A stretch of 39,998 nucleotides of DNA from a virus (taxonomy: Duplodnaviria; Caudoviricetes): IMG/VR virus record IMGVR_UViG_3300007734_000679, positions 1 through 39,998 of that record. The stretch is one strand, 5' to 3'. Positions 1-39,998 of this stretch are shown one piece after another (positions within the stretch are counted from its first letter, which is position 1; the number at the start of each line of letters is the position of its first letter). The notes beneath the pieces are model-generated. The model did no database searches. It was given only the letters and a program-made list of their open reading frames with translations, and was not told the DNA's origin. The position numbers and the translations under genes are program-made.

Positions 1-127
1 CCCAACCATTGTTCGCAATCCATCCTTTGAAGAGGCTGTGAAGCCCGACGAAAAAACAAGGGTGGCGTTGGAAAAGAACGTTCTTCTGTTCGACACTAAG
101 GAGTTTACGTCTACTAAGTCTGACGGA
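1..127. repeat. Terminal direct repeat copy 1 (assembly overlap)
   Basis: CCCAACCATT...CTGACGGA is identical to 39872-39998. Confidence 0.97.
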
Positions 128-3100
128 GCAGTTGTTACCGAGCGCGCATACAACAGCATCAAGGTTGAAGGCAACACGGCTCAAGAACGAGCGGAAAATA
201 TCATTCAGCAGATGGTGAGAAACCTGCTTGAGATTCACGATCGAATCCCTGAGGCAACTCGTAAGCGTTCAAAACTTTGGTACATGGGCGCAAACCGAAT
301 ATCGCGCGTGTTCGCAAAGCGATACGGCCTGACCGACAGGCAATCGGCGGCGGGACTGGCTGTGCTATCCCCGCAAGCAGATTGGCGTATGAACATCTCC
401 TACTGGGAGCGCATTCTCGACATCTCGCGTCACCGACAACAATATGTTTGGGATGCGAAAATGACTAGTTGGGCAGACGGGTACATTGAATCGAAGACGG
501 AAGAATGGGAACTGGAACGTCTTGCTTTAGAGAAAAGCCGAGACAACGCAAATAAGAGCGTATTGGTTGCAGGCAAAGCGATTGAGGGCAAGCAGAAGAA
601 GTACGAGTCCGTGCTTGCTGAGGTAGATGCGCGTGAACAATTGCGGCTTGCCGAACTTCAAGTCTTTGAAGATCAGGCGACAGAAGTAAAGGCGGCGCGC
701 GAACGACGCGATATAACCGAAAAAGCGGCTAAGGAACAACGCCAAGAGATTGCTGAGAAGAAGAGCAAGGCACGAGAAGCCGTTGATAAGGCTCGCGATA
801 AAGACAACAACAAGGCAATCAAAGCCCGCCAAGAAGTTCGGTTTGCTGAAACTGAGAAGCGTCAAGCGGAACGCGAAGCAATCAAGCGCCAAGCCAAGGT
901 TGATGAAGGGAATCCCAACCTTTTGGCGCAAGACTTTATTCGTGGAATGTCGTTGGCTAACGTGGAATCTGACTACGCACGTGCGTGGTGGATCCGCGCA
1001 TACGACGAAGCGCACAACCCTCGTGCCTTCCGCGATGTAACTCCTGAAGGCGACTTCCTTGATTTTGTCAAGACCGATAAAGGCAACAACTATCCTATTG
1101 GTTGGAAGTCCTTTGATGGAATCGCAAAGGCTGTTTCGATCATTCGCGATGGGTCTGTTGAAAACATCCACGACCAACTTGGAAACGAGCACAAGGTCAG
1201 GAGTTTCTACAACAACATTTACGCGCCCAACTCTTTGTTGCCGTTCCTTACTTCTGACACGCATCAGGTCGCGGCAGACCTTATGGAACCTCTTGGCTCA
1301 AGTGCAATCGAGGTTGGTCATAACTTTGGAACAGGTAAGGGCGTTGGCGTTGTCGGCCCTCAGGGCTTGAAGGGCACCTACTGGATGCACGCCGAAGCGG
1401 TTGTTCGCGCCGCGCGCGAGCGCGGGCTTATTCCTCGTGAAATGCAGTCCATTACATGGGAAGCAATTCGAGGCTTGTTCAAAGACACATTTAAGCAAGA
1501 TGAAAAGAACCTTGAGTCTGTCCGAGATCTTTGGGATCGGTATCGCAATGGGGAGGCAACTTATGAAGAAACCTTTGAATCCATCGTCAAACTTGCAGCA
1601 GGATTTACGGAGCCCTCGTGGGTTGGCATCGGATCCGATCGCTTCCTTCCTGCGGAGCGTGGGCATTCCAGTTACGAAAACGACTTGGCTCACAGCAGCG
1701 TCACACTCGATGAATCAGCCCTCACTGGAGAAGAACGACCCCGAAACATCGGGGATGTTGCAGCGGATGTTTCCCAAGGAGAGTCAGGAGTCCTAGAGCA
1801 AGCCGCTCCTGTATCGCCTGAGTTCTTCTCCGCGCTCAAGCGCAGCGTTGACGCCGTTGACGCTAAGGAGTTGACGGGCGCCCAGTGGAAAGATCGCATT
1901 GCCACCTTGGTAAACAAGGGCGAGGTCAAGGAAGAGGAAATCTATTGGACGGGCTTCTACGACTTCCTCGACATGCAGCGCGAAGGCAAGATCACAAAGG
2001 AAGAACTTGCTGCGTTCCTTCAAAACAATGGCGTAGATGTTCGAGTGTTGTCGTCTGAAGTGGTAAATGCGGGAAAGAAGACGTACAAACTAAGTTCTGC
2101 CGAGTATGGGACTGAAATTGGATCCTTTGCAAGCATGGAGAAAGCAGAAGCAAAGATTGAAAAAAACTTTCAACTCTCTATGGCGGTTCACGAGTCTGCA
2201 TTTGACCGTTACGTAGAGCAATTTGAAGGACGTTGGTATGTATCGGAAAGGGAAACGGTTACTGGTGAGCCATCAGGCTTGATATTTGATTCTCGCGAAT
2301 CTGCGGAAGCCTACGCAAAAAGAGAAAAAGAATATGCAATTGACCTTGAAAGGCAAAAGTATCGAACAGGCTTTGCCATTTACGAAATTGAACTTGGCGG
2401 AGGCGGAAACGATTTTAATTCAAAGTATGATTACGAACCGCTGATTTTGCCAAACGGCACAAACTACCGCGAAGTGTTGGTGACACTTCCTAACTTTCGT
2501 CCGCCAGTTAAACCTCCAAGCGCCAAAACGCTTGCGGCTCGCAAAGCAATATTTGAGAAGTACGAAACAGCCATTAAAAAAAATGATGCGGAAATAAGGG
2601 CAAATCTACTTAATTCAAGCGATATGACTCAGCAAGAAATGAGTGCTCACACAAATAAGCGATACGACTTGGGAATTGAACGAGATCAATTAGAAAGCGC
2701 TCGGGATCAGGAAGCAAGTCAATTTCCAATTCCTCAAGAAGCAGATGCACTTCGGTGGAAGATCCCGCACTTTGGTGAAGCAGGCGAACAAAACAATGTT
2801 CTTGTATCTACACGTTTGAATGATCGAGTAAGTGAGCAGGGTAAGCCTGCGCTTCACGTTGAAGAAATCCAATCCGATCAATCAGCAAAGGGTCAAGATA
2901 AAGGCTTTCAACCAAAGGAAGGCGTGTCGTCGTCAGACGAATATCTACGTCAAGAAGATATTCTGTACCAACGTTTTAATAGAAGTACGCAACTTGGGCT
3001 GGACGTACTTAGACAATTTGACAACCTTGGCTTTGATGATGGGGATAGAACGGGCCCGCTTCGATGGCTATCAAGCGAATCAAATTGGGATTTTGAAAAT

Positions 3101-6100
3101 GGCGGACTTGACTTGCGGGGTCTTACTGAAGATCAAGTAAGTGTTTTGCGGGAATATGTAGCAGCCAATAAAGAACTACGTGATCTTCAAAACAGTCGAA
3201 AGAGGACAAAAGAGTTGGTGCCGCGCGCGCCATTTATCACATCAACCGATGCTTACGTAAAATTGGCGCTCAAGCATACGCTTATGGAAGCCGTCAAGGG
3301 CAATTACAAGTATGTGACGTTTATTACAGGGGAGCAAAGCGTACAGCGATACAAGGACGCGTTGCTGCAAGTCATTGATAACGTGCGAATTAATAGAAAC
3401 GAAGACGGCACGTACACATACTTTGCAGAAAAAAATGGTCGAGTTGTCCGAAATGGCAGCGATGTGTCATCCGAGGTAATTAAGGAAACCTTTGGCAAAG
3501 AGGGCGGAAAGGAATTGCTTCGGGCTGCGGACGAGGCTGATGTTGACACGGTTGTAAGAGTTAACGCGGAGAACATTCCTGTTGGCGGCGCAGGTATGCG
3601 CAGGTATTACGACAGCATGGTCATAGACCTTGCCAACAAAATGTCGAAGAGGTTGGGCGGAGGCAAAATTGAATCTTTGACTATGAGCGACGGCACCGTT
3701 CAGCCTGCGTTGGAAATTACCGACGCTATGCGTGCAAAGATTAACGAGGCAGGTGGCCTGCCGTTGTTCCAAGCCGCATCGAAGAAGCCTGCTCGCGCCT
3801 CGTTTAACCCAAAGACGTTCGAGGTCAAACTTGGGCACCATTCGGACATGACATCGTGGGTGCACGAGTCGAGCCACTACCTGTTCGAGACATACCACAG
3901 GATGATCTTGGACGGCAGCGCGCCGAAGTGGGTCGCCGATGACTTCCAAACGCTGCTCACATTCTTTGGCGTCAAGGACAACGCTGAATGGAATACGCTC
4001 TCGTTTGAGGCGCGCAGGAAGCACTACGAGAAGTTCTCCTACAACTTTGAAATCTACATGGCGGAAGGCAAGGCGCCAACCATTGCGTTGCAGCCGTTGT
4101 TTGATCGCTTCAAATCGTGGATCATCCAAGTCTACACCGACGTCGTAAAGCATCAGAACACTCTGTACAAGGAGCAGTTCGGTGAAGAACTTCCTCCGCT
4201 TACCGATGAAGTCCGCCGCGTCATGGATCGCATGCTTGCGACTGAGGAGCAAATCCGAAGTACGGCTGAAGCCCGCGACATGAAGGCGATGTTCCAAACG
4301 CAGGAGGAAGCAGGAGTATCTGACGCGGCTTGGGCTGAGTATCAAACCGTGCTTAGCGCAAGTCACCGCGACGCTGTCAATGAATTGACCGCGCGCAGCA
4401 TGCGCGATTTCCAGTGGGTTGGCAACATGAAGAGCAAGTTCCTGAAGGAACTGGCAAAGAAGAACGCTGCTACTCGAAGAGCAGTCCGTGACGAAGTCGA
4501 GGAACAAGTACGTGCTGAACCGATCTTCAGGGCAATTGATTTTCTGAAGTACGGAATGACCACGTCGGAAAACGGCGAGCGCGTTTCGGCAGAGAACGTT
4601 GGCAAACTTAACCTTGCCGACGCGAAGGCTGTCCTAGGAGATGAAACCGCCAAACTTGGATACGGCAAGTACGGCATGATTGCAAAGGACGGAATGCCTG
4701 CTGACCTTGTTGCTGAACTGTTTGGGTTCAAGAGCGGCGACGAACTGCTTCGGGCTCTTGCGGCGGCAAAGAAGGTTGGAGATGAGATTGATGCGCGCAC
4801 TGACGAGCGCATGATGAAGGAGCACGGCGATCTGAACGATCCCGAGCGTATGGAGCAGGCAGCGAATGCTGCGCTGCACAACGATGCTCGGGCTCGTGCG
4901 GTGGCAACCGAACTAAACTTCATTACGAAGGCAACGACGCCCGTGAAGGAGATGGTTGCCGCTGCCCATGAGGTTGCGGTTGATCACATCAACAATCGCA
5001 AGATCAAGGATGTCAAGGCACATGAGTTTGCTGTAGCCGAAGCAAAGGCCGCGCGTGCAGCGCGCAGCACCGCCGACTCAAAGGTAAACCCCGAAGCCAT
5101 TGGAAAGTCCGCGGGTACTAGGGCATACAACAAGGCTATTGCCAGTGGCGTAGACGAAGCCGCTGCGGTGAAGTTGGGCGAGGACGCAGCAAAGACTGCC
5201 GCCGCAAATGCGCAAGAGCGCATCAACCTTCACAAGAAGCAGTACGGCGATGTTGACCCAATGGAGTCGGCGCGCCGCGCCAAGCAGCACCAGTTGTTCA
5301 ACAATCAGTTGGCTGCTGTTGCAGGTGAAGTGCAAGAGGAAGTGCGAGACACGGTCAGAGGTTTCTCAAAGTTCTTCAAGGCTGATTCCAAGATCAGCAA
5401 GAGCCGCGACATTGAAATGGTGATGGCTGCGCGCTCGATCCTTTCGGCGTTCGGTTTCGGACGTTCTGACAAGGCGCCGATTGAATACGTCAAGCAGATT
5501 GAAGCGTTCAATCCTGAACTGTTTGCCGCTCTTGAACCGATCATTGCGCGCGCATCACGAGGAGCGCAGGACTACCGAGAAATGACGGTTGCGGAGTTCC
5601 GCGCGTTGAGTGACGGCGTCACCGCTTTGTGGAACGACGCGCGCCGAGACAAGCAGATCATGGTTGGCGAGAAGAAGGTTGCGCTTGCGCAGGTCGTTGG
5701 AGAACTCGTTGATAGGACAAACGAGTTGGGCGTGCCTACCGAGATGGCGGGTGATAAGTCTGCGCCAACACGGCGTCAACGCATGATGCGCACGCTCAAC
5801 GGCGTGAAGAACATGATGCGCCGCGTCGAGCATTGGTGCGACGCGATGGACGGGCTCGACAACACTGGAGGCCCATTTACTAAATACATCTTCCGCCCCA
5901 TCGTAGACGCAATGGATGCGTACCGAGCCGATCGCACGAAGTATTTGAAGCGGTACGCTGAGTTGTGCGCAACGATCGAATTGCCGAAGGGCAGGATTGC
6001 TGCTCCTGAACTTGATTACACGTTCGGCGTCGGCAATGGTGGAGTTGGAAAGTCCGAACTGCTTGGCGCGCTGCTTCACATGGGCAACGACGGCAACATG

Positions 6101-7876
6101 CGCAAGTTGTTGATTGGTCGAAAGTGGGGCGAACTTGACGCCGAAGGAAACCTAGACGCTTCTCGGATGATGAAGTTCATCAACCGAATGGTGACCGAGG
6201 GCAAGTTGGTCAAAGCGGACTTTGACTTTGTCCAAAGCGTTTGGGATCTCAATGAGGAACTGAAGCCGATGGCGCAGAAGTCGCATCGCGACCTCTACGG
6301 CTTCTACTTCAAAGAGGTTGAAGCAACGCCGCTCAACACGCCGTTTGGCACGTATCGAGGCGGATACGTTCCCGCCAAGGTTGATCCGTTCATGGTCAAG
6401 GACGCGCAGCGCAACGCCAAGATGGATGCGCTTGAAGGCAACTTCAATCAGGTGATGCCGAGCACGGGTCTTGGGTTTACAAAGTCTCGCGTTGAGTACA
6501 ACCGTCCGCTTGCGCTTGACCTGCGCATGATTGGCAAGCACATCGACGATGTGATTCGGTTTGCACACGTGCAGCCCGCAATCAAGGATGTGTTGAAAGT
6601 CATTGGCAACGAAGAGTTTGCTTCGGCGCTCTCGAAGATTGACCCGACCGCTATTGAGACAATGTTGGTTCCGTTCCTCGGTCGTGCTGCAAGGCACACA
6701 GCGGTAGAACAGGGACGGTTCAAAGCAGTCGATGATTTTTGGATTGCTGTCCGCGGTCGAACAAGTTTGATGTTCATGTCTTTGAACCTCAGGCAACTCG
6801 GCGACGTCGGCGGAATATCTGTTGCGCTTACAAAGGTGAAGAGCGGGCAGTTGGCTGCTGCGATGAAACAGTACCTTGATAGCCCGCATGAAGTAGCAAC
6901 CATGATCGGCGAATTTTCGCCAATGATGGACGAGCGGTTGAACAACCACATTAACGACACGCGCGCTCGGCTCGATGACCTGATAGGAAATCAGAGTGGC
7001 TTGGGCAAGGCTCAAGCGTTGGCGCGTAAGCACGGCATGTTCCTGAACACCGTGCTTCATAACCAGTTGGACATTGTGACGTGGCTTGGCGCATACAACC
7101 AAGCACTTGCGGAAATTGCTGCTTCAGCAGGAGACAAGGAAGCGCAACGCGAAGCGGTGTCTCGTGCCGATGCAGCCGTTCGATTGACTCAGGGCGCTAT
7201 GAATCCTGAGGACGTTGCTGCGTACGAGCAAGGCACACCGTTCTACCGAACGATCACGCAATTCACGACATACCTCAACACGTTGGCAAATCTAAACGCT
7301 GACGAGTACGGGAAGATTGTTCGTGAATTGGGAATCAGGAAGGGTGCGGGCAAATTGGTACAAGCGCATATCTTGGCGTACGCCGTACCCATGATCATCT
7401 TCGGAGTATGGACTGATTTGATCAGTGGCGGTTGGGACGATGACGATGAATCATGGGCTGCTCATGCGCTCAGTGTTCTCTTTGGTTCGTATTTCTCGGG
7501 AGGCATAGGCATGCTCCCGTTCGGATCTCAGGTGCAAGGAATTGCCGAGGCTACGATTGCAAAGTCAATTGGTGGATCGGTCATCCGCAACAAAGAGCAC
7601 ATCAACGTCAGCCCCAGTATTAATGCGTTGGAGGGTGGTGTTGTTGGTGCAGCCGATAGCGCATACAGGGCAGTGAGCGGCAAGGAAATCACTGGCAAGA
7701 ACATCAAGGACGCTCTCACGCTTGTTAGCCTGTTCACAGGCATCCCACTGAACCCAATTGGTAAGACGGTTGGGTACGCGGTAGACGTCAACAACAACAA
7801 GATCCAACCGACTGGCACCGCTGACTACATCCGCGGTTTGATTACGGGGTCAGCAAGCCCTGAGAGCAAGAAATAA
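2..7876 (+). CDS. 3' part of giant internal virion / large polyvalent protein (~3,573 aa in total, starts at 37026)
   Basis: Position 38 corresponds to 39909, the same frame as the ATG at 37026. Contains an HExxH zincin-like motif (HESSH, 3863-3877) followed by EKF..NFE.Y..EGKAP, typical of polyvalent/ejection proteins. Sits between the ejection genes and the tail fibre. Confidence 0.88.
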   Translation, partial: PTIVRNPSFEEAVKPDEKTRVALEKNVLLFDTKEFTSTKSDGAVVTERAYNSIKVEGNTAQERAENIIQQMVRNLLEIHDRIPEATRKRSKLWYMGANRISRVFAKRYGLTDRQSAAGLAVLSPQADWRMNISYWERILDISRHRQQYVWDAKMTSWADGYIESKTEEWELERLALEKSRDNANKSVLVAGKAIEGKQKKYESVLAEVDAREQLRLAELQVFEDQATEVKAARERRDITEKAAKEQRQEIAEKKSKAREAVDKARDKDNNKAIKARQEVRFAETEKRQAEREAIKRQAKVDEGNPNLLAQDFIRGMSLANVESDYARAWWIRAYDEAHNPRAFRDVTPEGDFLDFVKTDKGNNYPIGWKSFDGIAKAVSIIRDGSVENIHDQLGNEHKVRSFYNNIYAPNSLLPFLTSDTHQVAADLMEPLGSSAIEVGHNFGTGKGVGVVGPQGLKGTYWMHAEAVVRAARERGLIPREMQSITWEAIRGLFKDTFKQDEKNLESVRDLWDRYRNGEATYEETFESIVKLAAGFTEPSWVGIGSDRFLPAERGHSSYENDLAHSSVTLDESALTGEERPRNIGDVAADVSQGESGVLEQAAPVSPEFFSALKRSVDAVDAKELTGAQWKDRIATLVNKGEVKEEEIYWTGFYDFLDMQREGKITKEELAAFLQNNGVDVRVLSSEVVNAGKKTYKLSSAEYGTEIGSFASMEKAEAKIEKNFQLSMAVHESAFDRYVEQFEGRWYVSERETVTGEPSGLIFDSRESAEAYAKREKEYAIDLERQKYRTGFAIYEIELGGGGNDFNSKYDYEPLILPNGTNYREVLVTLPNFRPPVKPPSAKTLAARKAIFEKYETAIKKNDAEIRANLLNSSDMTQQEMSAHTNKRYDLGIERDQLESARDQEASQFPIPQEADALRWKIPHFGEAGEQNNVLVSTRLNDRVSEQGKPALHVEEIQSDQSAKGQDKGFQPKEGVSSSDEYLRQEDILYQRFNRSTQLGLDVLRQFDNLGFDDGDRTGPLRWLSSESNWDFENGGLDLRGLTEDQVSVLREYVAANKELRDLQNSRKRTKELVPRAPFITSTDAYVKLALKHTLMEAVKGNYKYVTFITGEQSVQRYKDALLQVIDNVRINRNEDGTYTYFAEKNGRVVRNGSDVSSEVIKETFGKEGGKELLRAADEADVDTVVRVNAENIPVGGAGMRRYYDSMVIDLANKMSKRLGGGKIESLTMSDGTVQPALEITDAMRAKINEAGGLPLFQAASKKPARASFNPKTFEVKLGHHSDMTSWVHESSHYLFETYHRMILDGSAPKWVADDFQTLLTFFGVKDNAEWNTLSFEARRKHYEKFSYNFEIYMAEGKAPTIALQPLFDRFKSWIIQVYTDVVKHQNTLYKEQFGEELPPLTDEVRRVMDRMLATEEQIRSTAEARDMKAMFQTQEEAGVSDAAWAEYQTVLSASHRDAVNELTARSMRDFQWVGNMKSKFLKELAKKNAATRRAVRDEVEEQVRAEPIFRAIDFLKYGMTTSENGERVSAENVGKLNLADAKAVLGDETAKLGYGKYGMIAKDGMPADLVAELFGFKSGDELLRALAAAKKVGDEIDARTDERMMKEHGDLNDPERMEQAANAALHNDARARAVATELNFITKATTPVKEMVAAAHEVAVDHINNRKIKDVKAHEFAVAEAKAARAARSTADSKVNPEAIGKSAGTRAYNKAIASGVDEAAAVKLGEDAAKTAAANAQERINLHKKQYGDVDPMESARRAKQHQLFNNQLAAVAGEVQEEVRDTVRGFSKFFKADSKISKSRDIEMVMAARSILSAFGFGRSDKAPIEYVKQIEAFNPELFAALEPIIARASRGAQDYREMTVAEFRALSDGVTALWNDARRDKQIMVGEKKVALAQVVGELVDRTNELGVPTEMAGDKSAPTRRQRMMRTLNGVKNMMRRVEHWCDAMDGLDNTGGPFTKYIFRPIVDAMDAYRADRTKYLKRYAELCATIELPKGRIAAPELDYTFGVGNGGVGKSELLGALLHMGNDGNMRKLLIGRKWGELDAEGNLDASRMMKFINRMVTEGKLVKADFDFVQSVWDLNEELKPMAQKSHRDLYGFYFKEVEATPLNTPFGTYRGGYVPAKVDPFMVKDAQRNAKMDALEGNFNQVMPSTGLGFTKSRVEYNRPLALDLRMIGKHIDDVIRFAHVQPAIKDVLKVIGNEEFASALSKIDPTAIETMLVPFLGRAARHTAVEQGRFKAVDDFWIAVRGRTSLMFMSLNLRQLGDVGGISVALTKVKSGQLAAAMKQYLDSPHEVATMIGEFSPMMDERLNNHINDTRARLDDLIGNQSGLGKAQALARKHGMFLNTVLHNQLDIVTWLGAYNQALAEIAASAGDKEAQREAVSRADAAVRLTQGAMNPEDVAAYEQGTPFYRTITQFTTYLNTLANLNADEYGKIVRELGIRKGAGKLVQAHILAYAVPMIIFGVWTDLISGGWDDDDESWAAHALSVLFGSYFSGGIGMLPFGSQVQGIAEATIAKSIGGSVIRNKEHINVSPSINALEGGVVGAADSAYRAVSGKEITGKNIKDALTLVSLFTGIPLNPIGKTVGYAVDVNNNKIQPTGTADYIRGLITGSASPESKK

Positions 7877-10629: not shown

Positions 10630-10631
10630 TC

Positions 10632-10667
10632 AAAAAAAACCGACGCAAGCGGGTGCTTTGCGTCGGT
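10632..10667 (-). terminator. Intrinsic terminator (U-tract on the minus strand; may act in both directions)
   Basis: A8 run followed by the stem ACCGACGCAA / TTGCGTCGGT. Confidence 0.7.
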
Positions 10668-10672
10668 GCTCC

Positions 10673-10701
10673 TTGAACTTTACGCATTTGCTGTGTAGAG
10701 T
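10673..10701 (+). promoter_or_regulatory. Sigma70-like promoter upstream of the structured RNA
   Basis: TTGAAC-17 nt-TAGAGT; the same -10 hexamer occurs in the promoter at 19783. Confidence 0.55.
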
Positions 10702-10703
10702 TC

Positions 10704-11040
10704 GGGTCGGACATCCATAAGAGCGGTCACATTCTACCGCTCGACGACTGAAACAATCGCGGCGCGCCGCATGAATGTAGGATTTTCCCTCGCCTTTGTA
10801 GAGTGGAAGTGGTTTAGTCGTGCGTCTTGACCCTAGCGCACGCCGCGGATTTCCGCGCGCTCGCTCGATGCACGAGGCGGTTGGTACCACCCAACGAAAT
10901 GGTGAAAGCATCGGCAGGGATACCTCGTGCGGCTCCGTATGGGCTGACTTTCCCGTGACCTCGTTTGCACGGGGTCATGGTGTTCCTGCTGCCCACCGAT
11001 GAACTGATGCGACGTCTTGCGTGGCGATGCGCATAGCGAA
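10704..11040 (+). ncRNA. Candidate ~330-nt structured non-coding RNA
   Basis: No credible ORF; upstream promoter; many helices, e.g. 10721-27/10736-42, 10833-47/11020-36, 10870-77/10923-30, 10953-64/10969-80. Confidence 0.55.
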
Positions 11041-11075
11041 CCCCGAAAAAAAATTGCGATTGATCTTCTCTCCTC

Positions 11076-11150
11076 TTGCACTCTGCCCCCGTGTAGGGTA
11101 GACTACGTAGGTCAAGCATGCCGCTTGATCACAACTAGGAGTAGAACGTC
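11076..11150 (+). promoter_or_regulatory. Early promoter-leader unit 1
   Basis: TTGCAC-17-TAGACT; hairpin TCAAGC/GCTTGA; GGAGTAGA at 11138-11145. Confidence 0.75.
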
Positions 11151-11546
11151 ATGGCAAAGAACAACCGCAAGATTTCTGAAATGACCTCGAACTACAACGA
11201 GGTTGCAAACCCGATGCGCGAAGTGGTGAGGTCAACGTCGAACGTTGCTCTTGCAAATCTGATGTCGCGTTGCGACACACTGGCTGACACGGACGCAATG
11301 ACCGCAGCCATTGAAGGCGGCGAGACGATTGATCGTCAGGCGCGCGCGCTTCGCAGTTGCACATTGTTTGCCGTCGAAATTGGCGCAATCAGCCCCGACC
11401 AGTTTCAAGTGCTGAACACCATCCGTTCATATGCGCGCGCACGCGCGTATGCACTGATGAGCGAAATTGACAGCGCCGACATGCAGAAAGCGATTCGCAG
11501 CGGTGCGTACTCGGGATCAACTGCGCTTTCCGAACTTCTGAAGTGA
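11151..11546 (+). CDS. Hypothetical helical protein (131 aa)
   Basis: Strong promoter and RBS upstream; terminator-like hairpin downstream. Confidence 0.8.
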   Translation: MAKNNRKISEMTSNYNEVANPMREVVRSTSNVALANLMSRCDTLADTDAMTAAIEGGETIDRQARALRSCTLFAVEIGAISPDQFQVLNTIRSYARARAYALMSEIDSADMQKAIRSGAYSGSTALSELLK

Positions 11547-11557
11547 CGGCGGAAAAA

Positions 11558-11594
11558 CAGAAGCGCCGCACATGAGGCGCGGCGCTTCTGCTTT
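11558..11594 (+). terminator. Terminator-like hairpin
   Basis: CAGAAGCGCCGC / GCGGCGCTTCTG 12-bp stem, flanked by AAAAA and CTTT. Confidence 0.6.
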
Positions 11595-11619
11595 GGGGAA
11601 AAGATACGGACACCATACC

Positions 11620-12831: not shown

Positions 12832-13066
12832 GCAGGACAGCCTGTTTCCATCGGAGAAACTTTGGCGCAAAGAATGGGTTGGCATGCCCGAGTTTGAACA
12901 ACCATGCACCGAAGCAATAATGTCTGTAACTGTTCACTTTGTGTCATACTCTGACATGCATGCGTTTGCTGCGCTTGTTGGATCGCGCATCTTGCCTACG
13001 ACCAAGAGTTTGTTTTACCCGCCACCGTCAACGCCAGTAAAAATGGTGTACACGCGTGAATCCTAG
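12824..13066 (+). CDS. Small partner protein of the TAGT-like glycosyltransferase
   Basis: EWVGMPEFEQ...VHF...AFAALVG...TKSLFYP motif, which I recall upstream of phage TAGT/GREB1-like genes; GAGGAGGA RBS. Confidence 0.7.
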   Translation: MTEQDSLFPSEKLWRKEWVGMPEFEQPCTEAIMSVTVHFVSYSDMHAFAALVGSRILPTTKSLFYPPPSTPVKMVYTRES

Positions 13067-13928
13067 ACACCCTATCTACATTGTCAGCAAGGGTAGGTGG
13101 GACAGCAGGCTTACCGCTCGTGCGCTAGATGAAATGGGTGTGCCGTACTACATCGTGGTTGAGCAGGCTGAGTACGACAAGTACGCTGCGGTGATTTGCA
13201 AAGATAAAATCCTTGTGCTTGATCAGCAGTACCTTGACGACTATCAAACGCTTGACAATCTTGGGGCGACGAAGAGTAAAGGGCCTGGATCAGCAAGAAA
13301 CTTTTGTTGGGATCACTCGCTTTTGCGCCACGGCGCAACATGGCATTGGGTGCTAGATGACAACATCAACGGTTTCGTCCGACTCAATCGCAACCAACGC
13401 ATCAAAGTTAATAGCGGCGCAATGTTTGCAGCCGCCGAGGATTTTGTAGAGCGATACGAAAATGTTGTACAGGCTGGGTTTGAGTATCGATTCTTTGCAG
13501 GCGGTGGTCGCCGTGAGAAAGCACCGTACAGAACAAACACGAGGGTGTACTCGTGCATCCTTATTCGCAACGACATCCCATTCAGATGGCGTGGCAGATA
13601 CAACGAGGACACCATTCTCTCGCTTGACATACTGACTAATGGTTATGCCACCATACTCTTCCAAGCATTTCTTCAGAACAAGGCTGCTACACAGACTGTC
13701 AAGGGTGGAAACAGCGCAGACTTCTATGACCACGAGGGGACACGACCCAAGTCGCAGATGTTGATTGATGTCTATCCACAATACTCACGCATGGTCACCC
13801 GCTATGGGCGATGCCACCACCATGTGGACTACTCATCATTTCAAAGAACTCAACTAATTCGCAAGAGTGGCGTTTCGATTCCCGATGGCGTGAACAACTA
13901 TGGCATGGTTCTAAAGGAGACAACATGA
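13056..13928 (+). CDS. TET-associated (TAGT) / GREB1-like glycosyltransferase
   Basis: PIYIVSKGR, GPGSARNFCW, HWVLDDNI (acidic metal-binding motif), RVYSCILI, WRGRYNEDT, KGGN and HHHVDY motifs. Confidence 0.8.
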   Translation: MNPRHPIYIVSKGRWDSRLTARALDEMGVPYYIVVEQAEYDKYAAVICKDKILVLDQQYLDDYQTLDNLGATKSKGPGSARNFCWDHSLLRHGATWHWVLDDNINGFVRLNRNQRIKVNSGAMFAAAEDFVERYENVVQAGFEYRFFAGGGRREKAPYRTNTRVYSCILIRNDIPFRWRGRYNEDTILSLDILTNGYATILFQAFLQNKAATQTVKGGNSADFYDHEGTRPKSQMLIDVYPQYSRMVTRYGRCHHHVDYSSFQRTQLIRKSGVSIPDGVNNYGMVLKETT

Positions 13929-35268: not shown

Positions 35269-37029
35269 ATGCCAACCGTACCATCGTCGTTTGTCCCGCA
35301 AATTGCAACTGAAGCAGGCGCAGCGGCTCCGTATCAAGCGACGCCCGTTCAGCCGATCCAAGACTTTGGCGCTCGTCAAACGGCGGCGCTTGGCAAGTCC
35401 ATTACGGATGTTGGCGGCGCCACTGCCAGCGTTGGTATGAAGTTGCTCAATGAGTTCGACGAAGCGAAATCGAAAGAGATTGAGACAAACTACCTCAAGG
35501 CGTCTATGTCGATCTTGCAGGGCAAGAACGGATACTTTGCGACCAACGGCAAAGACGCAGCAGATAGGTACGAACAAACGATCAGTCAATTGAACGAGGC
35601 TGCTAGTTCAGCCATTGGCGCTGCGGACAACGACACGCAAAGACAGATGATTCAAAACGCAGTCGTCCGTCATAACCTGAACAACACCGCGACTGCGGAC
35701 AATCATCGAACCAAAGAGATCACCGTCTACGCTTCAAACGAGGCAAAGACGCGAGCAAGCAACTTTGCCGACCTTGCGGTTGGCGCATGGGAAAGCCGAT
35801 ACGAAGCCGACGATGAAACGGGACGGCCAAAGGGACTCTTCCACGAGAACATGATTGTTGCTCTTGATGAAGTTCACACGTTTGGTCGGTTAAACGGTAT
35901 TGCTGAAGACTCCGCGCAAATGAAGGCTCTTGAGCAGTCAGTATGGACGCAAGCGTCTGTTGGCGTTGCGGAGAAATTGGCTTTAGACAAGGACTATTCA
36001 TCCGCAATCCAGTTTGTGAAAGAGCAAAAAGAACTTGATCACATTTCTTCTAAGGTGTCAGACGAGTTGCTCAGGGGCTTGGCGGCTGACCAAATGCGCG
36101 TAGAAGTCGAAACATACACCGAGCAAATTATGAACGGCTCGTTGGGTCGCACGGGCGATGAGTTTCCTGAGCCACGAACAAAGCGCCAAGCCTTTTTATG
36201 GGCTGATGACAACATCACTGATCCCGACATGAGAAGGTTTGTCAAGCAGCGCATGGGTCAAGAGTATGCGCAGATGGCAGAGTTTCAGTTTGAGGCATAT
36301 CGCGAGTTACGCGACCGCGTAGAAGATGTTGTGGCAGACCCAAAAAAGTCTTTCAACGACATTGATCCAAAAGACTTTGCACTACTTAGACCAAGCGATC
36401 AAGAGTTTTTTATGCGTGGTCAACGTGCCAAAGATGATGAAAACATCATGTGGGAGATTGCACGTGATCCATCAAAACTTACTCCCGAGTATTTGGAAAA
36501 CCATCGAAATCAGATTTCGCGCGGAACCTACGTGTCGTTGCGAAAGGCGCTTAAAGATGATCCAACTAATGGCGTTCCAACGATGGATGCGGATCATTTC
36601 AACAGAATCTTGACGGACGGCGGATACGGTTACTGGCTAGACGAGAAAGCAAGAGATGCTGACAAACAAAATCTTCTCAGGATGAAAGACAACATCAAGA
36701 TAGAAATTGATGGGCTGCAAACGCGTTTGGGTAGAGATCTTTCTTGGCAAGAAAAAGACGCAATCTTTCAGCGAAGAGTCAACAACCAAATTAGTCTGAA
36801 CGACAATTGGTGGTGGGGTTCTTCTCCTACAAAGACGCCGTTTTCCGCCGCAACTGCAACTCAAATGCTTAATGCGTATGAACTAGATGCGAACGATAAG
36901 AAGGTTTTTCTTATTGACCCTATGGAACAAGCACAAGCGCGAACTGAACTTCGTGGCGTTCTTGGCCGACAACCAAGAGATCAAGAAGTTGTTGATTATC
37001 TGAATCGACGAGGAATACTCTATCCATGA
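35269..37029 (+). CDS. Internal virion (ejection) protein, T7 gp15-like position
   Basis: MPTVP N-terminus, GY....GKDA motif, all-helical; between the gp14-like gene and the giant protein. Confidence 0.78.
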   Translation: MPTVPSSFVPQIATEAGAAAPYQATPVQPIQDFGARQTAALGKSITDVGGATASVGMKLLNEFDEAKSKEIETNYLKASMSILQGKNGYFATNGKDAADRYEQTISQLNEAASSAIGAADNDTQRQMIQNAVVRHNLNNTATADNHRTKEITVYASNEAKTRASNFADLAVGAWESRYEADDETGRPKGLFHENMIVALDEVHTFGRLNGIAEDSAQMKALEQSVWTQASVGVAEKLALDKDYSSAIQFVKEQKELDHISSKVSDELLRGLAADQMRVEVETYTEQIMNGSLGRTGDEFPEPRTKRQAFLWADDNITDPDMRRFVKQRMGQEYAQMAEFQFEAYRELRDRVEDVVADPKKSFNDIDPKDFALLRPSDQEFFMRGQRAKDDENIMWEIARDPSKLTPEYLENHRNQISRGTYVSLRKALKDDPTNGVPTMDADHFNRILTDGGYGYWLDEKARDADKQNLLRMKDNIKIEIDGLQTRLGRDLSWQEKDAIFQRRVNNQISLNDNWWWGSSPTKTPFSAATATQMLNAYELDANDKKVFLIDPMEQAQARTELRGVLGRQPRDQEVVDYLNRRGILYP

Positions 37030-39998
37030 CTCCCATTGCTTTCCAAACTGATCTTGATGCACAGAATCGAACTATTGGTTCTGATGTAAACCGCAACGGG
37101 ATGCCCGAGGTAACGGAAGCAATCTTGCCAACGCGCATTGTTGTTGATTTAAAAGCAAACACGGCAAAGATGTATCGCGGCACAAACAAGTTGGAACCTG
37201 ATAGCAGGTTCCAATTGGAACCTGCTCCACCAACACCGCTTGAACAACCAATTGCAATTGCGCCGCTTGAACAGCCCATTGCAATTGCGTCACCACAAAC
37301 GGTTGGTGTTCCGTCTGCAACAGACACAATCAAAGAAATGTTGGACAGTCGGCGAAATGCTATTTACCACGCAGCCATGCGATCGTCGGGAGGAAACCCT
37401 GACGCTGACGCAAAGACTTTGCAGGCAGCGCGCGATTCAGGTACGAGTTACGACTTTGTTCTTCAGAACATGGAACAAACGCAGCGTCGGCTTTTTGGTC
37501 GTGAAGTTGCCAAGTTGGATCTTCCAAAGAATGCGCCTGTACTTGCCGAAAAGTTAGCCACCGACCCTGACTTTGCGCGCATAGCAACCGACGATCTTGC
37601 CAACCTGAAAGAACAAGAAGGATGGTGGAGTTGGTTTGGGCATCAAGTTACGGGAATTCCAAATGCTGTCATGCATGGCTTTGCGGCTTACGAGCACGCA
37701 GAATCGGGTGCTACGCAAGTTCTTGGGCCGCCAGTGCTGCATTCCACAATGTGGCCGATGGTTGACGCTGAAACGTTTTTAAATAGGCAAGAGCAGTTAA
37801 ATGCACACGACCTAACGTTTGACCCTGAGCGCGAAGGCGGTTGGCTTCCATTTTGGAACATGCTTGGCATGACGGGAGAATCATTTTTCAGAGCAGTTCC
37901 TGCTGCGGGCGGTGGCGCCATTGTCGGAGGGCTCACAGGTGGGCTTGCGGGCACAGCGCCTGTGCCGTGGGCTCCAGTGACAGGCCCAGTGGGGATGCTT
38001 GCGGGCGCACGAGTTGGTGCGCAAGTAGGGTTAACTGGAGCAGTAGTTGAAGACAATTTTCGACAAATGATGGGCATGATCTATAACCGTGCAATTGATG
38101 AGGGGGCAAATCCTGAGGTTGCACGTTGGAAAGCGGCATCATGGGGTTTGACTATTGGCGGAATCAGCCTTGGATTGATGAAGACGCTGTACCCAAAACT
38201 GTTTGCTTCGTTTCTTGAAACAAAAGCAACACAAGAGATGGCTGCAAAAGAATTGGCTCAACGAATTGCAAAGGAATCATTGACGCCAACAATGAGCGCA
38301 GCAGTAAAACGCATTACTGCGCAGACCGCGAAGCAGACAGCAAATACTCTTGCTCATATTAGCGGAGTGGTGATTGGGATTGAAATGGCTAATGAGGACA
38401 CGCGACGGGCATCCAATATGCCCATGCGAATTGAATCACCTGAAGGAAGGGAAGAACTCTTTAACAGTGTTGTGCAAAACTGGAAGTTTATGGCAATTGG
38501 ATCTGTTGGCATGCAAGTGCTGATGCCATCAGCGCACAACCCAATTATGTCGTTGGCGCGTGAGCGAACTAGGATTCGTATTTCTGAAAAGCAAGCAGAG
38601 AGATTTGAGGCGTTAAGCATTCTTCAAAAGGCTTCTCAACTAGCCTTGCGTTCTCCCGAAGATGCGCAGTCATTGATGGAAGGCACTCTGACAGGCACTC
38701 CTGTTGAAGACATCCTGATCAGCAAAGAGGGGATTCAACGAGCGATGGCAACGCTCAAAATCCCGATGGCAAACCTTGATGAAGTGATTCCTGGGGGATT
38801 GGCTCAATTCAACGACGTCGCAAGCGGAACGGCGGAAAGCGGCGGCTACATCAAGGTCAAGACCGCTGATTTCAAGGCGCGCATTGAGAAGACTCCGCTT
38901 GGCAGTCTTCTTCTAGGAGATGTGACTTGGTCGTCTGAAATTGGAACGTTGAGAGAATCGGCAGCGCGCAGTGCGTTCCTTAAGACTTTCATTTCCGAGA
39001 TCAACGAGAACGTAGAAAAGTTTGCCGATGAGGTAAATGAGGCAATTAACAAGGACGACGCGCACAGGGAAAGCGCGGAAAAAGTTGCCAATGTGATCGA
39101 AGCGCAACTGATTGGTGAAGGCCGAACCGCGGAGCAGGCGCGTACTGAAAGCCGTTTTTTGGGAGCGATTGCGTTTGCGGGCGCCGCGCGAGAATCAGAA
39201 GGCAAGGCAACACGGATGACTCCCGAGGAGTTCCATCGGAAGTACCCAATCCACATTGCCGAGCCCGAATCCGAGAAGCCTTCCGAGCCCGCGCGCGAAG
39301 TCGCTGCGCCAACGGAAACGGCAGCGCAAGTCAAACCAGTTGTGCCAACAACCGTTGATCCTACGTCGCGACCTCGCACTGTCGCGGAAATGTTGGTGGA
39401 GAACCGCCGCGCGGAAGAAGCGCAAGCGAACGAGCCCGTTGGTCAAATGTCGCGCCAAGGCAATGATGCCGTTGTTGAAGCGATTGCAAACCTGCGCGAG
39501 GCAAATGAAGCGCACAAGGGGTTTGCTAAAGACGAGGGCTCTACGGCAAAGACTGCTTCCATGCACGAAATGATGAGCGATCAAATCGATGCTGTTGAGC
39601 GTGAAGTCAAAGCGGGCGACGCGGTTGGTCTTGAAATTGAAATTGCAATCTTGCAGGAAATGCTCGGCGCAAGCAATATTCGCGAAGCGCGCAACGCCGT
39701 CAAGCAACCTGGAATTGCAAAGCAACTTGCCACTACTGCGCAGCGCCTGATCGACACCGCACGCGGTGAACTGGATCGAATAATTGAAAGCACGCCAAAG
39801 ACGGGCGAGGAAGACACGCTGAATCAACCATTGACAACAATGGTGCCATCTACAAAGAACGTCGTTCTTGACCCAACCATTGTTCGCAATCCATCCTTTG
39901 AAGAGGCTGTGAAGCCCGACGAAAAAACAAGGGTGGCGTTGGAAAAGAACGTTCTTCTGTTCGACACTAAGGAGTTTACGTCTACTAAGTCTGACGGA
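37026..39998 (+). CDS. 5' part of the giant internal virion protein (continues into 128-7876)
   Basis: ATGA overlap with the previous stop; MTPIAFQTDLDAQNRTIG... reads open, and the frame is absent from the ORF track, consistent with no stop before the window end; same frame as 38..7876 across the overlap. Confidence 0.85.
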   Translation, partial: MTPIAFQTDLDAQNRTIGSDVNRNGMPEVTEAILPTRIVVDLKANTAKMYRGTNKLEPDSRFQLEPAPPTPLEQPIAIAPLEQPIAIASPQTVGVPSATDTIKEMLDSRRNAIYHAAMRSSGGNPDADAKTLQAARDSGTSYDFVLQNMEQTQRRLFGREVAKLDLPKNAPVLAEKLATDPDFARIATDDLANLKEQEGWWSWFGHQVTGIPNAVMHGFAAYEHAESGATQVLGPPVLHSTMWPMVDAETFLNRQEQLNAHDLTFDPEREGGWLPFWNMLGMTGESFFRAVPAAGGGAIVGGLTGGLAGTAPVPWAPVTGPVGMLAGARVGAQVGLTGAVVEDNFRQMMGMIYNRAIDEGANPEVARWKAASWGLTIGGISLGLMKTLYPKLFASFLETKATQEMAAKELAQRIAKESLTPTMSAAVKRITAQTAKQTANTLAHISGVVIGIEMANEDTRRASNMPMRIESPEGREELFNSVVQNWKFMAIGSVGMQVLMPSAHNPIMSLARERTRIRISEKQAERFEALSILQKASQLALRSPEDAQSLMEGTLTGTPVEDILISKEGIQRAMATLKIPMANLDEVIPGGLAQFNDVASGTAESGGYIKVKTADFKARIEKTPLGSLLLGDVTWSSEIGTLRESAARSAFLKTFISEINENVEKFADEVNEAINKDDAHRESAEKVANVIEAQLIGEGRTAEQARTESRFLGAIAFAGAARESEGKATRMTPEEFHRKYPIHIAEPESEKPSEPAREVAAPTETAAQVKPVVPTTVDPTSRPRTVAEMLVENRRAEEAQANEPVGQMSRQGNDAVVEAIANLREANEAHKGFAKDEGSTAKTASMHEMMSDQIDAVEREVKAGDAVGLEIEIAILQEMLGASNIREARNAVKQPGIAKQLATTAQRLIDTARGELDRIIESTPKTGEEDTLNQPLTTMVPSTKNVVLDPTIVRNPSFEEAVKPDEKTRVALEKNVLLFDTKEFTSTKSDG
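37236..37289 (+). repeat. 27-bp near-perfect tandem duplication (PLEQPIAIA x2)
   Basis: CCGCTTGAACAACCAATTGCAATTGCG followed by CCGCTTGAACAGCCCATTGCAATTGCG. Confidence 0.8.
39872..39998. repeat. Terminal direct repeat copy 2 (assembly overlap)
   Basis: Identical to 1-127; lies inside a CDS; 127 is a common assembler k-mer size. Confidence 0.97.

Follow-up and report, generated by a model that had tools for sequence, protein, structure and literature searches.

In plasmids of the ColE1 type, replication starts from an RNA and needs no plasmid-encoded initiator or Rep protein: a structured transcript of host RNA polymerase stays paired in a persistent hybrid, is trimmed by RNase H and is then extended by Pol I (PMC5043065). 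The MRB plasmids also replicate from an RNA without a Rep protein, and RNA-run replication has arisen more than once (PMC3035462). Among phages, T4 relies on R-loop-primed replication followed by recombination-dependent replication (PMC3016281). Large pseudoknotted RNAs, some of them from aquatic or phage DNA, are known from GOLLD, ROOL and OLE (PMC12286853) and from Polynucleobacter-1.

The window analysed here is a whole virus record of 39,998 bp with direct terminal repeats, which represents a complete podophage. In PHROG searches its virion genes (for terminase, portal, capsid, tail tube and internal virion proteins) came out as a module of podovirus type, and its early region was found to contain RusA, RecT and Gam-like genes as well as a glycosyltransferase; nearly all of its genes lie on the plus strand. 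The nearest isolate by capsid (86%) is Limnohabitans phage DC33, which has a different early module, and the sequencing runs containing DNA of the window are labelled mostly as freshwater, riverine or sediment. Positions 13056-13928 encode a TET-associated glycosyltransferase (Pfam TAGT, E 8e-41), which suggests DNA modification, and the early region of relatives holds a C5 methylase or PAPS-reductase-like gene. A single very large internal virion protein, of 3571 aa in G082, is split in the window by the record ends (37026-39998 and 38-7876).

The RNA site is a gap of 521 nt (10630-11150), with spanin-like genes on one side and a 131-aa ORF on the other. The original prediction called it the only large ORF-free gap, and the ORF lists show no larger one on the plus strand. 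That prediction had placed here a promoter-driven RNA of two closed domains, and the motifs it listed are all present, to within about one base. The features of the locus are as follows.

10632-10666, minus strand: A8 tract with inverted repeat, terminator-like, directly upstream of P1.
10673-10701, plus strand: promoter-like element P1, TTGAAC-17-TAGAGT, with a putative start at about 10706-10709.
10707-11006, plus strand: structured RNA of about 300 nt, with its conserved core at 10721-11006.
10721-10778, plus strand: 5' pseudoknot, made of helix H1 (10721-27/10736-42), pk1 (loop 10729-34 with 10773-78) and helix H2 (10759-62/10767-70).
10731-10736, minus strand: -10-like hexamer TAGAAT, at a distance of 99 nt from the A tract of the terminator.
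10786-10807, plus strand: hairpin H3, with an invariant GUAG at the loop end.
10809-10890, plus strand: pk4, 10809-13 with the loop 10886-90 of hairpin C (10880-84/10891-95).
10819-10857, plus strand: helix H4 (10819-24/10837-42), with the invariant loop UGACCCUA, and helix H5 (10844-48/10853-57).
10828-10977, plus strand: pk3, H4 loop 10828-34 with 10971-77.
10865-10998, plus strand: helix A (10865-71/10908-14), pk2 (10900-04/10994-98), which crosses helix A, and hairpin E (10930-35/10941-46); GAAAUGGUGAAA is invariant within this stretch.
11076-11104, plus strand: promoter-like element P2 for the next gene, TTGCAC-17-TAGACT, the same in L125.
11151-11546, plus strand: gene of a 131-aa helical-bundle protein, which accompanies the RNA only in the clade of the window and L125.

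The stretch 10707-11006 has eight homologues in other phage sequences and one probable remote relative (G055). A near-identical phage (L002/G082), two metagenome contigs (L172 and L185) and a copy at 75% identity (L125/G032) were combined with the window into a model, R1, which was positive in five of 50 records (mostly the longest of 80 capsid-related ones). Four of these were new, namely the distant, full-length copies in G062, G068, G069 and G070 (E about 1e-23). The RNA search was negative in 31 other holin-related records and in four named phages, and a further model, R2, found the RNA in none of 70 additional records, mostly short fragments. A pattern scan returned about 120 loci, among which the near-identical phage was the sole true homologue, and a pattern search of metagenomes gave two true homologues out of 20. 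One GTDB scan had no match to the RNA and a second gave a single 31-nt match in a Burkholderiaceae intergenic region (L280:3044-3076, minus strand), which resembles hairpin C and the invariant junction, lacks the rest of the RNA and was judged to be due to chance.

Over the core, the window is 84.6% identical to L125, against 63.4% and 73.1% for the flanking coding DNA, and 97.9% identical to L172, against 94.0% and 85.0% for neighbouring coding DNA. No reading frame in the RNA stretch is conserved across the homologues. The minus-strand ORFs that overlap it have no PHROG match and are frameshifted in L125 by indels of 1-2 nt, so that a conserved protein-coding ORF, the counter-explanation named with the original prediction, was not found.

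The nine aligned sequences share 52 pairs in nine helices, with 98.5% of 468 cells paired and 21 of the 52 pairs changed on both sides, counts that do not equal independent events because the alignment was fitted to R1 and the sequences form about four clades. In a slid control, in which partners were shifted by 1-3 columns, 34.6-44.4% of cells were paired. The RNA element is thus conserved and covarying, and its fold is predicted to contain four pseudoknots, pk1 to pk4, all added by an unbiased helix search. It is on covariation that the element is judged real; folding of the window alone is weak evidence, since the whole element reaches z -1.42 (10 of 100 shuffles as good), with the halves at z -2.87 (10704-10835, 0/100) and z -2.24 (10833-11000, 1/100). 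Covariation, together with the conserved promoter hexamers described below, supports the new promoter-driven structured phage RNA that had been proposed.

Within the 5' pseudoknot, H1 and H2 are separated by a clade-specific insert; pk1 comprises 7 bp, whose pairs can be read directly in the window, and has two double changes between L125 and the distant clade; H2 also has two double changes. Five of the six pairs of H3 are double-changed and one pair fails in four of the nine rows, while double changes occur in three of six pairs in H4, two of five in H5 and six of seven in helix A. In pk4, 4-5 of the 5 pairs form in all nine sequences, with two double changes. Variation in pk2 and hairpin E is one-sided only, and pk3 forms 7/7 pairs in all nine sequences; both pk2 and pk3 are near-invariant, so their support among the nine amounts to compatibility only. 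The pairing of pk3 and that of the base of hairpin G (10955-64/10969-78) are mutually exclusive, and these competing pairings make pk3 and hairpin G a candidate folding switch. Hairpin G has an invariant 3' strand and a 5' strand that varies on one side; it lies within the 12-bp hairpin noticed earlier, which survives at 10955-78 with 8-10 of 10 pairs in all nine sequences. A small hairpin after P2 (11111-11130) keeps its pairing with changed letters in L125; the region of the H4 loop could pair with the 5' strand of this hairpin by complementarity.

The model of two closed domains therefore gives way to an interlocked pseudoknot fold. Of its elements, GAGCGGT/ACCGCTC, GCGG/CCGC and the TTCC/GGAA hairpin are kept in the homologues. 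The pairing GCACGAGG/CCTCGTGC does not extend beyond the clade of the window (2 of 8 pairs in four distant homologues), and CGGCAGGGA/TTCCTGCTG, with 3-4 of 9 pairs, is not kept family-wide. Nor is the suggested switch pairing CATCGG/CCGATG, its 5' strand being used by the helix with double changes in 6/7 pairs. Neither ACGACTGAAAC/GTTTAGTCGT nor GGGTCGGAC/GTCTTGACCC is family-wide: the 5' arm of the former sits in the insert of the window's clade, within which a G.U to G-C change in L002 fits the pairing, and the latter could form over 6 bp in L125 but was not seen at all in the distant clade. Also to be dropped as family features are the closing helix of 15 bp and the end at CCCCG-A8, as the 3' arm is missing in L125 and the distant clade.

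The statement that the RNA belongs to no recognised family holds for Rfam. Nothing in the window reached the gathering score, and the models of Rfam 15, including ROOL, GOLLD, OLE, HEARO, tmRNA, RNase P and ribozymes, gave only chance matches in the window and homologues (E 0.7-3.5); the idea of a ribozyme is unsupported, as no ribozyme model matched there. ARAGORN reported none in the window, blastn against named phages gave no match to the RNA, and RF01718 (Polynucleobacter-1) was found in none of five records. The absence of Rfam matches at E<=5-10 in the window and homologues sets the RNA apart from GOLLD, ROOL, OLE and Polynucleobacter-1, which it resembles as a large pseudoknotted RNA. 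A blastn search of 72,556 plasmids (PLSDB) gave no match to the RNA, so no homology to ColE1 or MRB origins was seen. Sequence look-ups with three versions of the RNA turned up nothing similar. No published description was found in literature searches; motif lists outside Rfam could hold one, and one section of bioRxiv 10.64898/2026.10.21.760802 does not mention the RNA.

At the position matching the RNA of the distant clade, G055 has a longer, promoter-led element. It aligns end to end to R2 with 11.1 bits, a weak match (E 0.006 in 10.5 kb), and the best R2 matches in two control regions are short (6.7 and 5.3 bits). A different 8-bp complement stands at the places of pk3 (chance about 0.001), and plausible strands of pk2 and pk4 are present. 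Judged from these sequence features, the element is probably a remote member of the RNA family. The surrounding 1.1-kb gap (L313:7340-8460) is without credible genes and contains a cluster of GC-rich hairpins (7340-7500), an AT-rich palindromic stretch (about 7505-7600) and the promoter-led RNA, which measures about 445 nt and begins with 170 nt that the window does not share. Directly downstream of the RNA lies a 150-aa gene (L313:8468-8917), a weak look-alike of the G39P_N helicase loader that is to be taken as a lead only (atlas 0.85, family on 15% of members).

The promoter TTGAAC-17-TAGAGT, which had been read from the window, is corroborated by hexamers that stay while spacers diverge: L125 has TTGCGC-17-TATCGT, and L275, L276 and L278 have TTGCAT-15/16-TAT(G/C)AT. 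A P1-like promoter is present by eye in G055, and a strict promoter scanner did not call P1 in the window. No sense terminator occurs within 260 nt downstream of the RNA in any of six sequences tested. Contigs from the RNA runs X19 and X20 do not reach over the element, a result that is neutral. The minus-strand terminator proposed upstream stands in part: the inverted repeat is kept by eye, also in the distant clade, but scores as a terminator only in the window and L125 (2/6), with no score in L275, L276, L277 or G055. Antisense control is likewise suggested only, as a minus-strand promoter-like site over pk1 was found in L125, L275, L276 and L278 (4/6 tested) but not, with a -35, in the window or G055; the window keeps only the -10, which overlaps pk1 and may therefore reflect structure alone. 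The predicted antisense RNA would overlap only about 16 nt of the sense RNA.

The RNA, P2 and the 131-aa gene form a cassette, bounded by hairpins, which is inverted relative to its flanks (L125:4700-5680 compared with 10630-11600 of the window); the idea of an invertible segment was dropped, as terminal inverted repeats are lacking. Members of the distant clade lack the 131-aa gene and have the RNA upstream of the terminase, from which a few small genes separate it. It occurs with its own promoter in three gene contexts and in both orientations, and is therefore not tied to a single downstream gene. Fold comparison gave nothing specific for the 131-aa protein (the best Z, 9.7, is within the range common for helical bundles), Avd/S23-like rows are not distinguishable among its fold matches, and it shows no likeness to the loader-like protein of G055. 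A repeat-protein match (P0011) proved spurious. A distant homologue (P0010), about 50% identical to the L125 protein, was seen on a 24-kb Logan contig, which may carry another variant of the RNA. GC-rich repeats of GCGAAGCG/GCGCAGCG units lie 60-190 nt downstream of the RNA in L276, L277 and L278 and could be single-strand initiation hairpins. Those downstream of L278 gave only short matches to plasmids (best E 1e-3, Streptomyces plasmid ends), which leaves a likeness to ColE1 primosome sites unsupported.

Clustering of the ORFs of 21 related records showed that a lambda-O-like initiator family is confined to phages without the RNA. A profile built from this family and run on 24 records matched 11 of them at E<=1.4e-57 and none of the eight RNA records at E<=10. 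Sixteen records at least 89% complete and with the same virion module were tabulated, of which five have the RNA and no initiator (G000, G082, G062, G069 and, with the remote RNA, G055) and eleven the initiator and no RNA (G038, G040, G042, G043, G051, G059, G065, DC33, zth2-2, MW202640 and MW202722). RNA and initiator thus exclude each other in 16 of 16 (Fisher p about 2e-4 by hand, assuming an independence that the records do not have). Left out were three incomplete RNA records in which no initiator was seen (G032, G068 and G070), two records that are 73-76% complete and show neither (G058 and G066) and three with other virion modules, namely G012, with an initiator and a helicase, G014, with a primase and a helicase, and G016. 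The last of these (L323-L324), rated 99% complete, has no initiator in 31 scanned ORFs and no RNA match; RecT and Gam-like genes are present, and it may hide another origin type.

The remark that no replication initiator is visible in the window agrees with the results of PHROG, Pfam and the initiator profile. No initiator, helicase, primase or polymerase was detected by PHROG or Pfam in the non-structural ORFs of G000, G062 and G055, nor in selected ORFs scanned from G082, G069 and G032, results that hold for families that can be recognised and for ORFs no shorter than about 60-80 aa. A PHROG primase match in G062 was secondary to the methyltransferase match of the same ORF. G051 and G059 have several genes in common with the window, yet carry a protein initiator. 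On a portal tree with an open backbone, the RNA records form two supported clades plus G055; with only 2-3 lineages, the exclusion rests on few events, and RNA and loss of the initiator may both mark one early-gene module. No GC-skew switch was found at the RNA in five records. Since the RNA phages show no initiator gene and initiator-bearing sister phages lack the RNA, the RNA likely starts DNA copying.

The resemblance to ColE1 RNA II and RNA I lies in alternative pairings, the apparent lack of a replicon-encoded initiator, a long stretch of structured non-coding sequence that follows a putative sigma70-type promoter and has no terminator downstream, and a minus-strand terminator-like hairpin near the 5' end (PMC5043065). 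Unlike its ColE1 counterpart, the phage RNA measures about 300 nt rather than 550, has four predicted pseudoknots, resides in a tailed phage and matches no plasmid sequence, and its priming is putative. ColE1 RNA I covers nt 2-110, whereas the candidate phage antisense RNA would overlap mostly the promoter. As with the MRB origins, this would be an RNA-run replicon unrelated in sequence to ColE1; those origins are restricted to Vibrionaceae plasmids (PMC3035462), unlike the phage RNA. The window also has RecT, Gam-like and RusA genes, in keeping with the recombination-dependent phase of T4 replication. Unlike T4, which encodes its own replisome, the RNA phages show none of their own, and their RNA has an ornate conserved fold.

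The proposal of a ColE1 RNA II-like primer gains from the exclusion among 16 near-complete relatives. Counting against it are the few RNA lineages, the small proteins that follow the same pattern (below), the missing skew switch and plasmid match, the antisense promoter without a -35 in the window, the weak match of G055, the finding of neither RNA nor initiator in G016, and the poor conservation beyond 11006 on the 3' side, the expected place of a cleavage site. The uncatalogued RNA family is real and probably works like a ColE1 primer, without being a member of the ColE1 family. About an even chance is given to the reading that this conserved, covarying four-pseudoknot RNA of initiator-less phages serves as a pre-primer of ColE1 type from which phage DNA replication begins. 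Host RNA polymerase would transcribe the RNA from P1, and the folded 5' part with the switch between pk3 and hairpin G would keep the 3' part annealed to the template at around 11000-11060. This R-loop would be turned into a primer by RNase H and Pol I, the replisome would be brought in by host restart proteins, and replication would from then on be recombination-dependent and maintained by the RecT, Gam-like and RusA genes of the phage. Priming may be damped by a short antisense transcript that stops at the upstream terminator.

The strongest competitor, possible at roughly half that probability, is a free, trans-acting ornate RNA (a scaffold like ROOL, GOLLD or raiA, a decoy or an unknown ribozyme), co-inherited with the early-gene module and without a priming role. 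Its compact multi-pseudoknot core with invariant loops, its own promoter, its change of locus and orientation in the manner of a moron cassette and the many relatives without it (five of 50 positive) would fit such an RNA. Against it speak the missing sense terminator in 6/6 sequences, the lack of an Rfam match and the exclusion of the initiator in 16/16 records, which it does not explain.

The RNA might instead act with a small phage protein (phrog_13182-like, HTH or the 131-aa bundle) as a ribonucleoprotein initiator or loader rather than a primer, which is unlikely. A phrog_13182-like protein occurs in 8/8 RNA records and 0/16 others, an HTH protein in 8/8 RNA records plus G058, and a small protein tracking the RNA in this way could be the initiator instead. 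In G055 and the clade of G062, the RNA is followed at a short distance by the phrog_13182-like gene, but in the window this gene is 2.8 kb away, and the 131-aa protein, with its generic fold, is missing from the distant clade. A cis-acting leader, either an antiterminator or a riboswitch-like switch over the downstream early genes, is regarded as just as improbable: the exclusive pairing of pk3 and hairpin G is switch-like, no terminator follows the RNA and the downstream genes are co-oriented, but these genes differ among clades, in the window and L125 they are preceded by a promoter of their own, P2, and the switch is not coupled to a terminator or ribosome site. A degenerate ribozyme derived from a group I intron is very improbable, since the likeness of 10868-10922 to the 3' half of a group I core, noted by eye in the window clade, is countered by the lack of an RF00028 candidate in G000 and G032, by a P7-like helix that in R1 fails at 1/5 pairs in 4/5 rows and whose 5' strand belongs to pk1, and by the covariation of the look-alike strands as helix A.

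Returning to the pre-primer, many small tailed phages show no replication gene, and this RNA family is a candidate answer to how their replication starts. The broader reading, held at slightly short of even, is that a lineage of tailed phages swapped its protein initiator for a four-pseudoknot RNA in a movable cassette, run by host enzymes alone, which would be the third independent RNA-run replicon after ColE1 and MRB. As a candidate origin, the locus is well delimited and, at about 500 bp, small enough to clone; its fold is backed by covariation and it offers a specific, mutable switch. Should the RNA prime, RNA-run replicons would reach into phages, and should it not, structural studies would still have in it an uncatalogued RNA with several pseudoknots.
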